NCBI GenBank assembly: GCA_000165345.1
Contig: CM000435.1
Coordinates: 928,001 to 992,000, forward strand
Length of the DNA stretch: 64,000 nt
Reading direction: 5' to 3'
Below are positions 1-6,000 of this stretch, one piece after another. Numbering within the stretch: position 1 is the first letter of the stretch; every line of letters starts with the position of its first letter. The position numbers were made by a program.

Positions 1-3000
1 GCCAGCTTTTTGCGAATTTTGCTTCATTTCCCTTCCTTGAGTTGCAATTTTACTAGCCTTGCTTCTAACCGTACTTGCATAGGCAATTTGCTTATTTTTG
101 AGGACGTTGGTTATTTTAGACCTTCCCCGCTTTTTGTTCTTTTTCTTTTTAGTCTTATTCTCACCTTGTGTGTTTTCTTCTAAGTCCTCGACTGCACGAG
201 GAGTTTTGTTAACCTTACCAATAAGATCAGGATACAGTGTAATGGTTGAGGCAGGAAGCTTTTCTAGCAACATCCTAACTTCTCTGTTTCTTCTCTGTTT
301 GGATGTTTCGAAAATGTTACATTCTCTAGAGTCAAAGTTTGCATATCCAGCACCAGGAGCAATTATAGTTTCAATGCCGTGAGTATGCCCAATGCATAAA
401 ACATCATTCCAAGGCTGGAATTCAACTTCAGAAACACGGACTGCAGGATGGTTATGAGTAATATAAGGCATTTTTTGCTTTGACTTTGAATGTAAATCTT
501 TCCATATTTGAATGTGACTACCAAAGCCCAAAGCTACTAATCCAGTACCAGAAATTGAAACGGACCTTACTGAGCTTCCAAAAGACTTATAGATATATAA
601 AGGAGTATACTCAGAGCACTTTCGTATATCCCAAACCTTCCAAGAGTTATCATTACCTGCTGTAATCAAGCTATTATTGCTTATATCCAAGGCAGTAAGT
701 CCACCTTTTTGTGCAAATATTTCCATTACTGGAGTTGATACATTTGGTGTCCAAAGAGAAACAACTCCATCGCTGTGCCCTAAATGTATTACTCCATTAA
801 ATTGATTATGTTTCATAATATGGCAAGGCCCCCTACCTGTTTTATGTAAGGCTGCAACTTGGCCAGTGGAGACATCCTGATATCTAAGCTCTCCAAACTC
901 TCCAATACTGCAAAGTAGAAAGTGATAGGGAAGAAAATCCAATTTATAAGGCGACGTTACATGATCACGTATACAATGAATTTCTATTCCTTCACGATCA
1001 TAAATATAAATATACTTCTTTTGTGCTATAGCAAATAATGTATGATCATGAAGAAAGTGTACATCATTGATTTGTTCAGCCTCTAAAGGCAGTTCAAGTA
1101 GGATATTGGGAGCTCCATTCGATATGTCAAGCATTGAAATATGCCCTTTTCTCCCACCCATTAATAATTGATTTCCATTTCTGGAATAATTTATAGAATA
1201 AGGTCCGGAGGACAAGTCTAAGGAAAAACGCTTGTTTATTGCCCCTATACTAATGTTTTCACCCAACTCATTTTGAGTTATTGAAAAACTCTTCTCTAAA
1301 CCCTCAGTCTCAAGAAAGCCTGGTGTTTCAGGTAAAAGTATCTCACTATTGGCTAGCCTCTCTGATGCTGTGTGGAATATTTTTTGCTGCAAACTTAACT
1401 TGCTTTTCAACTTTTTGTCCTTGAGGCCTTTTAGACTAGATAATGAACTATGTCGTCTGTATTTACTGGAATTTCCAAACTTAAAATCATCCTTAACTTC
1501 AGCCATCATTCAAAACTATAAAGCTGATAGATTCAGTAAAATTCTCATAAAAATATAACTATGGCCAAATCTATCCAACAAACTTATTCACAGACTTATT
1601 TTTCTCCTCTATTTTCTTACCAAAATGTCACAGTTTACAATATTTAATAAAATTATTTCCGTCTAGTTTAGCGCTGTGGCGCCAACGTGCCATAAAATCT
1701 ATAATTAAAAAATATGTTAACTTGGGCTTTAGAATACTGCCTCAGCCTATTGAAGATTAAAGTATATGTTCAAAATATAAAATCAATCTTGTTTTTATTT
1801 TTCAGATTCGTTGAAAAAGTACTGCAATTGCTTCGAATTTTGATTTTCGCCTAAACATTTAGTTAAGTAAATTTCATCACCTCCCCCCCCTGGCTGAAAA
1901 CAGTAGGACCCAAAAATAAAGCGTTTCTTCCAGTACTCTATATGGGTAAATATATTATTCTGGTCGCATTCTACTAGAACTATTTTCTTATTTTCGGGTT
2001 CGGGATCTTTGATGTCGTGGACTACGCTTAGACAGGTATTTGAATATATATGTCGAACGATACTTCCTAAGGATGAGTGTTAACAATTGTGGGAAAATAC
2101 TAATTCTAGATAAACTTACTTTCATTGTCAATGTAGAATATTTGTGCATTTTCATTTGGTTTACATTCTGATAACTTTAACTCGAAATTCTTTTCTCCAC
2201 TTTTTTTCTCGTTCCCAATTAAAGTGAAGCATTTACCATTACCACTAAAAACTATTTGACTTCTTGGATATTCTATTAGTCCAAATTCGCTCAACTCATT
2301 ATAAAATTTTGAAGTAAATATTAACTTTTGGTCACATTCATACTCTTTAATGAGTTCCTTACGTTTATTTATCAATACCTCAAATAATCCTGATGATAGT
2401 TTCATATAGTTAGCCAGCTTCTCACTATTATTCATAATCATCTGCTTGGTTGGCTCATCTATCCAAGATTCCAATAGAACTTGTCTTATTTCTAACGAAG
2501 GTTGTGGAATTTTTACCTTAGTTACACCAAATGACAGTTCTGCTATCTGAGCTACTCGCCCACCACAATTCCATGATCTTAGAGAAATATCAAAGTTAAT
2601 ACTCGTTTTGAATATCAGGTTAATTGTTGGATCTGAAAGTTTTGATATATTTAACCACCATGATTTTGTTATTGCAAAGATTTTTGAATAGAACATTGGA
2701 ACTTTATTATCTAATGTATGGATATTTGTTAATTCAAATTCTTTTGTGAACATCATTTTTGGTGAATATACAGGATCATTATTCGAAAATGTCCATTTGT
2801 CTTTATTCAATTTTTTAAATCTTGGAACTATTATTGATTTATAATTATCACTTAAACTCCTCATTATTGGTGACATCCAATTTTTTGGAAAAAGAGTTGC
2901 AGATGGAACAAATAAAATGATTTCCCCAGTTGAATTGTTTGCTCCAAGATTCTGTAATTCTCCTAATTCTTGTAGTTCAGTCTCAATTATTTTAATCAAA

Positions 3001-6000
3001 GGTTTATCCAAGAATTTCTCACCCAAATGACTTTTAATATCTTTTCCAGAGTCTCGACAATCATTTGAAATAATTATTATTTCGTGAAGTAAATTTCGAT
3101 TTGCAGTCAAAAGTATACTATTTATTGTAACATCAATCAATTCATTATCTTCACAGTCTGGTATTATTACAATTGAAAAAATATCTGATTTTCCATATAA
3201 TCCAGCATATTCATTTTCTTCCAACCAAGAGTTTATTAATTCTCTAGGTAGTGTTGTAAACTCTTCTTTTGACCCAAAAACAAAAGTAGTCAATGCAACT
3301 TTCAACATCAAATAACATATTGCCAGCCCGAGAGGGAATGCATTCCTCATTTTGTTTTGCCCCAAATATAATACAATAATTGCCTTTCCCAAATTTTCGT
3401 TGAAATTATTTTATTTATACACATGTAAAAAGTGTGTGCAGACTAAAATTGGTTATTAATTAAATGCGTACAATAAATTAATTTTCCTATATTATCCATT
3501 AGCTATGATTTTTAATAAATTAGGTGTTTAATATATCTATAAACCTATCTAGATGAATTTTTTACAAATTTAGCGAGAAAAAATCCCCTACAATTATGGG
3601 TTTCTGAATTTACGAATATGCACTTCTTGTAGATTTCTCCAAAAGAAGAATCTTGATATGATCTATTAGGGTTTTCCCAGTTTTCAAGCGCAATTTCTAG
3701 TGAAAATTGTAAATTGCCACTATTTTTACACTTTTCAAGGGAATTCAAGACAACTTGTTCATTTTCCTCTGTGAAGATTGAGCAAGTTGAATAACAAACA
3801 GTCTCAACTGATTGAAACGATGATAAAGAATGAATTAACATTTTAGTTTGAAACTCTGATAAACTTTTAAGCCTCTTTTCAATATTTACACTTTCAACTT
3901 TACCATGTTGAGGTAATCCGCTCCCTGAACAGGAAGGATCTAAAACAATTACACGTAAATTGGATATGGTGTTTTTATAGTGATACCAAGGTAAAAGATG
4001 ATCTTCAGCAGTTGGTGTTAGACTCAAAAAGTCACACTTTGCAACATGAATAAGTAGATCAGGTGGTTTAAAATTATCCAAATAATCAATCATTATTAAT
4101 TTATTATTTCGAATAAGTTTTGACTCCTTATCCAAAAATATACAGCCTATTTCACCTAATAAGCATTCATCTGAAATATCTTCAATTTGAATCGTTACAA
4201 AATTCTTCTTTTTATAAACAAAAGGTCCAGCTAGATATGGAACTTCTGATATCCGTTTAATCAAAGTTTTGATTCTAGTTGAATCTTTATCTAAGGCAAC
4301 TAGGCGTCCTCTTTTATTCAACATGTCAATAATATGTAGTGATTTGCTTCCAGGGGCAGAACAAGCGTCTAATACAAAATCTCCCGGAGTGATCTTTGCG
4401 CATATGGCAGAAAAGCAACTTCCTTTGTCCTGTAAAACTACTTTGGATGTTTTAATGAGCTCATTACTGCTTGGAATCCTATCTAAGCATAGTAGTTTGG
4501 CAACCTCATGTTTACATGCAATCACATTTTTTATATGTTTATCAATCCAAATATAATTTTGAATATCATCATTTGCAAATTGATTTGTCTGTTTAACCTG
4601 ATCCAATATAGAGTTCAATACTGATTCAGTGCTTTCAATAGTAGTGTTTACCCTCAGATACCTTGGAATTTGCTCATAAACTTTAGAATGTTTAACTTGA
4701 TTGATTAGATCTGGATACTCCTTAGAAAAACATTCGTAAAGCTTATCTTTATTTTTCCGAACCAACCTTGCTAGGGCCCCTCCACCCTGAATCTTCAAAT
4801 TCCCAAATAGCTGTTCATAAGCTAACACTAGTAATAGCCAATAATTTGAAATTTGGTTGATGTTTGAATCCTCTAATAAATGGCTTTTTTGAAGAATGAG
4901 TTCAAGCTCCTTTCTTTTCCCACTAACTCCATGAACAAGCGCGCTTAGTTTCCTAATATTACACTTATTTTGTTTTTCAGAATAAATTACTGAACGAATT
5001 CCAACATTCTTCTTCTCTATCTTGTTCAATACTTTGGCAGCTTCTAAATACAAAGTTGACATTGGATTCGGTTAAAACTCAAGTAAAACATGCATAGATT
5101 AATTAATATTGAAGATATAATCTCTTCTCAATGATAAAACTAAACTTTGGTTCCAATATCCAACTTTGTATTATTATCTTTGTGAATGGTTATTAATTTG
5201 TCAAAAATGAATTGGCGCGCATCTAATTTGTAATAATTGCAAATGGGATAACATGAAAGTTGTTAAAAAAAAATTATAAAACTAAGAAATTAATTATAAA
5301 CATTACATCCTCATTTAGTATTAGTAGGATTCTGCCGTGGAAGCGATAATTGAGGTAGTATTTCATGCTCATTTATAGTTCCAGGACTCCCACACAAATT
5401 TCTAGACCATATTTTAAGTCTTGAGTCTTGACCACTAGAAACAACCAAGTGCCCGAGTGGATGCCATGCAACTCCCCAAACAGCTCCTTGGTGCGCTGAA
5501 GGAATTAATCCGAGTGGATTTCCGAAATTAACATCTATATTATAATAAGCGATGTCGCCATCGAAAAATCCAACAGCCATTAGAGACTCAACTTCTGGAT
5601 GCCAAGAAATACTTACTGCATCACATTTTGTTCTGTAAGTTGTTATTGGCTTTGACAACTGTCTAATATCCCAAATTTTTAACGCACCGTCCTTTCCTGA
5701 AGAAGCAAGCATTTGACCTGAAGAGCTCCATTTAATTCGTACGACGGTGTGTCTATGACCAAAAATAGTTCCAATAGCATTAGCAGTTCTGGGGTCCCAA
5801 AGGTGAAGCTGATATGTTTGAGAGCCTGTTGCAATGAGTCCTTTAATTGGATGCCACTGTGCACAAGTTATATCGTATCCTCTTGAAGTTAGTGAGCTTT
5901 CAATTTTCTGAGAGCCAACATCAATTATTATAGGGTGTACATTTTCTGCTGCTGCTACAACTTTGTTTCCAGTGGGAGAAATTGTAACATCTCTAACAAC

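Follow-up and report, generated by a model that had tools for sequence, protein, structure and literature searches.

Chromosome 7 of Cryptosporidium parvum carries cgd7_4120, a gene of two exons on the minus strand whose 500-residue product is a relative of the polypeptide N-acetylgalactosamine (GalNAc) transferases (ppGalNAc-Ts) and has the fold of glycosyltransferase (GT) family 27 (GT27). It was studied in a window of 64,000 nucleotides (nt) (contig CM000435.1 of assembly GCA_000165345.1, positions 928,001 to 992,000), to which all coordinates below refer unless another contig is named. The protein is probably a pseudoenzyme that would be unable to perform the Mn2+-dependent retaining transfer from uridine diphosphate (UDP)-GalNAc of GT27. 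It combines a homologous fold with missing catalytic residues and purifying selection on the gene, and motif loss throughout a genus together with purifying selection is the signature of a pseudoenzyme. An earlier reading of this DNA (the original prediction) had suggested that the protein is catalytically dead or mechanistically altered. The loss of motifs, its fixation across the genus and the purifying selection support a dead enzyme, whereas the part of the argument that was built on a missing lectin domain fell away.

Family membership and fold

The protein contains a GT-A domain homologous to that of GT27. The Pfam profile Glycos_transf_2 (PF00535) matches residues 61-225 with E = 6.4e-8 and 33.1 bits, against a cut-off of 23.3. 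A phmmer search of the PDB returned only ppGalNAc-Ts as top matches, with GalNAc-T10 (2d7i) at E = 3.9e-11, and a profile of nine orthologues matched TgGalNAc-T3 (6s22) at E = 7e-12 over residues 59-437, thus reaching into the lectin domain. An AlphaFold2 (AF2) model computed from a multiple sequence alignment (MSA) of 72 sequences, which replaced an earlier model from a 6-sequence alignment with a predicted local distance difference test score (pLDDT) of 52.8, reaches a pLDDT of 90.7 and a predicted template modelling score (pTM) of 0.83. In it, a Rossmann-like GT-A domain is connected through a helical linker (residues 286-355) to a C-terminal domain of 12 strands. When the PDB was searched with Foldseek, GalNAc-Ts occupied 50 of the 50 best places (E = 8.7e-24 to 6e-18), with alignments of about 485 columns that span both domains. 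The template modelling score of these matches is just ~0.47-0.50 and their root-mean-square deviation is high, which fits an altered relative orientation of the two domains. Profile alignment (Pfam, 6.4e-8; PDB, 7e-12) and structure comparison (Foldseek, 8.7e-24) agree with the GT27 membership that had been proposed from the DNA. The domain in question and the comparator gene of the same window are:

2451..3188, minus strand: GT-A (GT27-like) domain, residues ~55-300, with its catalytic residues replaced (Pfam, PDB alignments, AF2 and Foldseek)
8766..10679, minus strand: cgd7_4160, the comparator, a canonical ppGalNAc-T with DDGS, DSH, WGTENLE, the His of CSRVFH and a ricin-B lectin domain

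A BLASTP comparison of cgd7_4120 with cgd7_4160 gives 17% identity over 233 amino acids (aa) (E = 1e-4), and cgd7_4160 is no nearer to the cgd7_4120 protein than many other GalNAc-Ts are (17-22% identity). The original prediction had described a block-for-block match between the two genes and had regarded them as paralogues. The named blocks do align and the paralogy holds at the level of the family, but the pairwise match is weak and the identities do not point to a close tandem duplicate.

Loss of catalytic and ligand-binding motifs

Four features that define an active GT27 enzyme are missing from cgd7_4120: the DxH motif, the DDxS motif together with the Arg of REGL, the WGGENxE motif, and the third His with the mobile loop. 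Three of these positions are occupied as follows:

3057..3068, minus strand: S95-N96-D97-C98 at the position of the D-D-x-S nucleotide-binding motif (BLASTP, MAFFT, conservation table)
2898..2906, minus strand: P149-S150-A151 at the position of the DxH Mn2+ motif (BLASTP, HMMER, MAFFT, hmmalign)
2589..2609, minus strand: K248-T-S-I251-N252-F-D254 at the W-G-G-E-N-x-E position (HMMER, hmmalign, MAFFT)

The replacements of DDGS by SNDC and of DSH by PSA, both of which had been read from the DNA beforehand, were recovered by every alignment method, with the same placement in BLASTP, in HMMER alignments to five solved GalNAc-Ts, in MAFFT and in hmmalign. VDDGS aligns with ISNDC, in which C98 is invariant and positions 95 and 96 vary (SN, HR, DK, FK, DA). 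LDSH aligns with VPSA, and the 10 species compared read [PS]-x-A with an invariant A151. Among 148 distant homologues from the profile search plus cgd7_4160, D-x-H stands at the aligned column in 133 of the 149 sequences and E-x-H in 3 more. KTSINFD retains the Asn of WGGENxE alone; the last Glu has become Asp and the motif Glu an invariant Ile. The Arg of REGL is gone as well, its place being taken by Q127 in the HMMER pairwise alignment and by E123 in the 72-sequence MAFFT alignment, with no Arg either way. In the column of the third Mn2+-ligand His (C-S-R-V-G-H) only V, I or L occur, and deletions shorten the segment that follows, which we take, from T2 structures, to be the mobile loop that closes over UDP-GalNAc. 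Mutation of the Asp or His of DxH or of the Glu of WGGEN is said to abolish ppGalNAc-T activity, in work attributed to Hagen in 1999 and to Fritz in 2004 and 2006.

The loss extends further than these motifs and further than the original prediction had claimed. In 61 homologues that bear DxH, 50 alignment columns are at least 85% conserved; the Cryptosporidium family has kept 23 of them and changed 27. The retained columns are all structural (WxCGG, W158, W296, P218, F147, G136, C262/C339 and the six lectin Cys). The changed ones comprise both Asp and the Ser of DDxS, a conserved Arg and the Gly of REGL, the D and H of DxH, two Trp in the region of the acceptor groove, the GG loop, Y-D, W, G and E in WGGEN, the His that is the third Mn ligand and a conserved Arg ahead of WMDE. 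Mean entropy is 0.90 at the replaced positions against 0.98 for the domain, and 0.11 at the retained canonical positions.

All 10 aligned Cryptosporidium species share these motif losses, including C. muris, whose orthologue CMU_014250 (35% identity) reads P-G-A at the DxH position. Since C. muris also lacks DxH, the loss is older than the divergence of gastric from intestinal species. A search for a D-x-H or D-x-D motif elsewhere covered the whole protein and found no [DE]x[DEH] tripeptide that the 10 species all share, which rules out an alternative acidic motif at another position. A profile search of 1.84 billion cluster representatives found no orthologue that retains DxH: the two clusters below 1e-30 are both from Cryptosporidium and both without DxH, and the next matches, from 2e-24 onwards, are canonical GalNAc-Ts. 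The same search found no orthologue outside Cryptosporidium.

Gene model

A 414-codon open reading frame (ORF) that starts with ATG is present in the ORF listing at 2106..3350 on the minus strand, where the original prediction had placed the gene. Its product is 99-100% identical to C. parvum entries, and the window is C. parvum chromosome 7. In Table 2 of PMC9713705, a survey of glycosylation pathways, this model of 414 aa carries the name cgd7_4120, and cgd7_4160 is the neighbour of 637 aa at 8766..10679 on the minus strand. The ORF corresponds to exon 1 plus a read-through into an intron. It covers no other exon because its in-frame stop, a TAG at 2106..2108, is intronic and sits within a 53-nt intron (2067..2119, GTAAGT...CCTTAG). 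The gene is composed as follows:

2120..3350, minus strand: exon 1, codons 1-410 and the first base of codon 411 (ORF listing, splice model)
2067..2119, minus strand: intron, 53 nt, phase 1, GTAAGTTTATC...CATCCTTAG (DNA reading and splice models)
1795..2066, minus strand: exon 2, which completes codon 411 (two bases) and runs through codons 412-500 to the stop at 1795..1797

When 2120..3350 is spliced to 1795..2066, 500 of 500 residues match P0001 and C. parvum GenBank entries such as QOY40735.1. The intron is kept in position and phase in C. ryanae, C. xiaoi, the chipmunk genotype, C. felis and two Sequence Read Archive (SRA) assemblies; in these six other species or assemblies it measures 49-59 nt, has a GTAAGTT donor and is followed each time by a conserved exon 2. 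Three unsaturated species pairs give a ratio of nonsynonymous to synonymous substitution rates (dN/dS) of 0.09-0.26 for exon 2 alone, which is therefore coding. An in-frame TTG at 3392, reported by an ORF finder that uses the bacterial code, is not the start, as the ATG at 3350 agrees with all orthologues.

Deposited models that end inside the intron are found for C. parvum Iowa II (XP_628568.1, 414 aa), C. hominis, C. tyzzeri, the chipmunk genotype, C. xiaoi and C. ryanae, and the automatic gene calls on the two SRA assemblies likewise stop there. Correct models of ~500 aa exist in other C. parvum and C. hominis records and in C. meleagridis, C. ubiquitum, C. canis and C. felis. The truncated models of this gene can be fixed in at least six species. 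On the contigs analyzed, the intron in question lies at:

9241..9299 on L001; 4238..4288 on L002; 4232..4285 on L003; 4232..4285 on L004; 1771..1828 on L005: intron at which the models end

Lectin-like domain, cysteines and N-terminus

The ricin-B lectin domain, stated to be absent in the original prediction, is present; its apparent absence was an artefact of the intron read-through, as the stop at 2106 lies in the missed intron. Of the three repeats of the ricin-B-like domain, exon 2 codes for beta, gamma and the last part of alpha. The domain as a whole is built from exon 1 residues ~365-410 and exon 2 residues 412-500 (89 aa), and the C-terminal ricin-B fold is complete once the intron is spliced out:

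1798..2258, minus strand: ricin-B-like beta-trefoil, residues ~365-500, interrupted by the intron (Pfam PF00652, AF2, Foldseek)

With the Pfam profile Ricin_B_lectin (PF00652), whose cut-off is 29 bits, the C. parvum protein stays under the threshold at 24.7 bits and the C. felis protein reaches 30.0. The beta-strands of the trefoil have a pLDDT above 90 in the AF2 model. The six Cys of the trefoil (374/396, 422/444, 466/481) do not vary within the family, and the canonical enzymes conserve them as well. In R-type lectins, the Asp of the C-x-D motif binds GalNAc. This sugar-binding Asp is replaced in three out of three repeats of cgd7_4120, namely by T376, by S424 (S, E or Q across species) and by Q468, which makes lectin activity doubtful; the trefoil is unlikely to act as a canonical lectin. 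The alpha-repeat Asp is also missing in many protist GalNAc-Ts, so its loss is weaker evidence.

The mature protein has exactly ten invariant Cys: C262/C339, the three lectin pairs and C66/C98. The C66/C98 pair is specific to the family and has been gained, while the first canonical disulfide pair has been lost. C66 aligns with the canonical HNE loop and C98 with the Ser of DDxS, both of which line the uracil pocket. From this alignment, a new C66-C98 disulfide that would staple the uracil pocket is a reasonable inference.

At the N-terminus, a single hydrophobic segment precedes the GT-A domain:

3273..3338, minus strand: N-terminal hydrophobic segment, residues 5-26, a signal peptide or type II signal anchor

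AF2 models a helix at residues 6-26, and with 21-22 residues the segment has a length that fits a signal peptide or a type II anchor. Table 2 of PMC9713705 gives "yes" for a signal peptide and 0 for transmembrane domains. As the GT-A domain begins at ~55, there is no stem region. With a signal peptide or an anchor alike, the body of the protein would be luminal or extracellular. Where the hydrophobic segment ends, the nine intestinal-clade sequences all read F-V-F-G-x-K-x-E (residues 23-30), a conservation that is unusual for the cleavage region of a signal peptide; C. muris has F-L-V-E-C-V-E.

These features of the two ends also bear on an explanation that we regard as rather improbable, namely that cgd7_4120 evolved from an enzyme into a lectin or adhesin that is secreted or sits on the surface and, instead of regulating glycosylation, works outside the Golgi, e.g., in the parasite-host interaction or in the oocyst wall. 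A signal-peptide-like N-terminus without a stem and a trefoil whose three disulfide pairs are retained and constrained are what such a binder would display, and the GT27 protein GALNTL5, which occurs on sperm with reported GalNAc binding, sets a precedent (PMC12443989). Nonetheless, none of the three trefoil repeats has the canonical C-x-D Asp, the 21-22-residue hydrophobic segment suits a membrane anchor equally well, and no localisation or expression data were found.

Conservation and selection

Orthologues are found in C. parvum, C. hominis, C. meleagridis, C. tyzzeri, the chipmunk genotype, C. ubiquitum, C. canis, C. felis, C. xiaoi, C. ryanae, C. muris, C. andersoni and C. serpentis, and 89 residues are invariant across 10 species. 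Over the whole gene, dN/dS is 0.09-0.16 (again in three unsaturated species pairs), with 0.10-0.14 for the GT-A domain and 0.11-0.19 for the lectin domain.

These values leave a very low probability for a decaying pseudogene or an annotation artefact without function. Such an explanation could draw on the lost catalytic motifs, on the disagreement between database models (414 vs 500 aa) and on the Pfam lectin score of C. parvum below its threshold. However, the two-exon reading frame is intact in at least ten species or assemblies, dN/dS lies at 0.09-0.26 in every domain, the 89 residues and the 10 Cys are invariant, and intron position and synteny are conserved. We rejected the pseudogene on these comparative data, with dN/dS and the intact frame refuting it.

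Comparison with known glycosyltransferase-like proteins

Like the canonical ppGalNAc-Ts (cgd7_4160, 6s22, 2d7i), cgd7_4120 has a GT-A domain, a helical linker and a C-terminal ricin-B trefoil, and it shares with them WxCGG, WxDE, the C262-C339 pair, the six lectin Cys and a secretory-pathway N-terminus. Unlike these enzymes (GT27, EC 2.4.1.41), it has neither the catalytic motifs nor a stem, and its loop after the third His position is shortened. The vertebrate Y-subfamily members GALNT8/9/17/18 show little or no activity in vitro, and GALNT18 has been proposed to modulate isoforms. They have GT27 membership in common with cgd7_4120 but retain DxH; the Y-subfamily also keeps the lectin domain and differs mainly within the Gal/GalNAc-T motif. 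Outside GT27, Cosmc (C1GALT1C1) is a pseudo-GT31 chaperone of T-synthase for which client binding has been demonstrated. Similarly to Cosmc, cgd7_4120 is a conserved paralogue of an O-glycan GT, lacks the metal motif and appears to belong to the secretory pathway. The two differ in family (GT27 vs GT31), with homology limited to the GT-A fold.

Within GT27, GALNTL5 (GALNT20) has no detectable transferase activity, binds chaperones of the endoplasmic reticulum (ER) and is reported to bind GalNAc (PMC11655647; PMC12443989). Toxoplasma gondii has five ppGalNAc-Ts that all keep DxH, one of which, ppGalNAc-T4 (TgT4), is without a lectin domain and has been likened to GALNTL5 (PMC5225312). cgd7_4120 belongs to the same family as these two proteins, both of which keep the DxH (GT1) and Gal/GalNAc-T motifs and lack the lectin (PMC11655647; PMC5225312). 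It is the reverse of GALNTL5 and TgT4, with the lectin fold kept and the catalytic motifs gone, and does not belong to a GALNTL5 type in which catalytic motifs are kept and the lectin is absent. Its pattern of loss is opposite to that of the known inactive GT27 proteins; pseudo-GTs themselves are already known (GALNTL5, Cosmc).

Pseudoenzyme or altered enzyme

Several points weigh against the pseudoenzyme interpretation. Metal-independent GT-A enzymes without DxD exist, e.g., C2GnT of GT14, so the loss of DxH alone is no proof of inactivity. Six replacements are now invariant (C98, A151, S222, S236, S239 and I251), and residues 151-160 (ATLFPKNWMS, entropy 0.62) and 251-260 (INFDISLRSW, 0.37) are among the most conserved of the family; these invariant replacements and conserved cleft segments suggest that the cleft is still used for something. 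The MSA underlying the AF2 model consists mostly of canonical GalNAc-Ts, and statements on the active site come from sequence alignment only. A role as partner or chaperone is drawn from analogy only. In the searchable literature a single paper names cgd7_4120, as a 414-aa candidate GalNAc-T (PMC9713705), and no biochemical or genetic test of the protein was found.

The conservation of the cleft could alternatively reflect an active glycosyltransferase with an altered mechanism, either metal-independent or with another donor or acceptor, in which K248, R265 or D254 would replace Mn2+ and DxH. We consider this unlikely, even though the high conservation of residues 151-160 and 251-260 (entropy 0.62 and 0.37), the several invariant replacements, the strong purifying selection on the GT-A domain and the existence of metal-independent GT-A enzymes (GT14) would all be in line with it. 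The elements for the nucleotide (DD, the Arg of REGL) and for the sugar (GG, WGGE) have been lost alongside the metal ligands. Species diverge at the DD positions (SN/HR/DK/FK/DA), at DxH positions one and two (PS/PV/PA/SA/SS/PI/PT/PG) and at the WGG positions (T/S/E/A/D), and K248 is Gly in C. muris; such variation is unlike a new catalytic constellation. In addition, deletions have shortened the mobile-loop region that follows the lost His, the 10 species have no [DE]x[DEH] tripeptide in common, and the replaced positions change at the average rate of the domain (entropy 0.90 vs 0.98).

A further possibility, to which we assign a similarly small chance, is that the former nucleotide-sugar cleft was rebuilt as a new site, making cgd7_4120 either a metal-independent GT27 enzyme whose catalytic constellation would be new to science or a Cosmc-like obligate partner. 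The elements of such a rebuilt cleft may be C66/C98, A151-x-L-F-P-x-N-W-M-S and I-N-x-D-I-x-L-R. If cgd7_4120 were such an obligate partner, the four ppGalNAc-Ts of the parasite would need it to glycosylate gp40/15, gp900 and mucin antigens.

Proposed evolution and role

Under the favoured interpretation of cgd7_4120 as a pseudoenzyme, the protein would descend from a polypeptide GalNAc-transferase that lost its whole catalytic apparatus before the Cryptosporidium species diverged. The loss would have comprised the Mn2+ ligands (both of DxH and the third His), the residues that hold UDP (DD(x)S, REGL), those that hold GalNAc (the GG loop and the W, G and E of WGGENxE) and the canonical Asp of all three lectin repeats. 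The gene has nevertheless stayed under strong purifying selection, and the protein may act by binding, in the lumen of the ER or Golgi or after secretion. Most plausibly, it would serve the four active C. parvum ppGalNAc-Ts (Cp-ppGalNAc-Ts) or their mucin substrates as an accessory partner, a regulator or a chaperone, because of the analogy with Cosmc and T-synthase and the existence of non-catalytic GT27 proteins such as GALNTL5.

The mucin-type O-GalNAc glycans of gp40/15, gp900 and other mucins are central to attachment, invasion and the design of vaccines and serology, and a pseudo-GT that is strongly conserved throughout the genus is a candidate regulator or partner of O-glycosylation. 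The database label of cgd7_4120 is UDP-GalNAc:polypeptide GalNAc-transferase. PMC5549699, citing Bhat 2013, counts four Cp-ppGalNAc-Ts, each with a lectin domain; PMC9713705 counts five candidate GalNAc-Ts, cgd7_4120 among them. The published four appear to exclude cgd7_4120, since each has a lectin domain, the model of that period was a lectin-less protein of 414 aa, and PMC9713705 lists five. The searchable literature, with the exception of Bhat 2013 and DeCicco RePass 2018, contains no statement that cgd7_4120 is without catalytic motifs. That the fifth family member is most likely non-enzymatic corrects the GalNAc-T inventory of Cryptosporidium, and many annotations miss the full-length lectin-like domain of this protein. 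The value of the result is mainly corrective, for the inventory and the gene models. In itself it is unsurprising, as pseudoenzymes are common in large families and GT27 has inactive members.

Genomic neighbourhood and other degenerate GT27-like proteins

The gene order around cgd7_4120 is conserved and runs RING, ppGalNAc-T, PP2C, WD40, NSUN5, cgd7_4120, BING4 WD40 and RINGv/FHA. The following neighbours keep their order in all Cryptosporidium contigs examined:

3545..5062, minus strand: NSUN5-type rRNA methyltransferase
5311..6537, minus strand: WD40 protein
6739..8637, plus strand: PP2C phosphatase
10873..11985, minus strand: RING-H2 membrane protein

The two SRA assemblies, L004 (SRR31860986) and L005 (SRR31861040), contain syntenic orthologues that are 68-71% identical to C. 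parvum, with saturated synonymous differences. On the C. ryanae contig L001, a cgd7_4160-like and a cgd7_4120-like gene (759..2672 and 8001..9567) are both present and intact.

Other GT27-like proteins have also degenerated. P0037, P0043, P0089 and P0112 were considered as orthologues and rejected, as their grouping with the Cryptosporidium family in a neighbour-joining tree is probably due to long-branch attraction. The nearest named relatives of P0037 (L007, 2193..4064) are lophotrochozoan GalNAc-T7-like proteins. P0037, P0043, P0089 and P0180, all from Logan/ENA assemblies, have a lectin domain and carry K-S-H or K-S-A in place of DxH and [IV]-N-[LW]-D in place of E-N-x-E; for this group, independent loss combined with long-branch attraction is the probable explanation. 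Finally, P0123, P0139, P0143, P0147, P0156 and P0157 are likewise without DxH (DAS, NHQ, SVH, DSD, SSS or SSD in its place) and share a G-G-G-H-x-L-E-L-S variant of the Gal/GalNAc-T motif.

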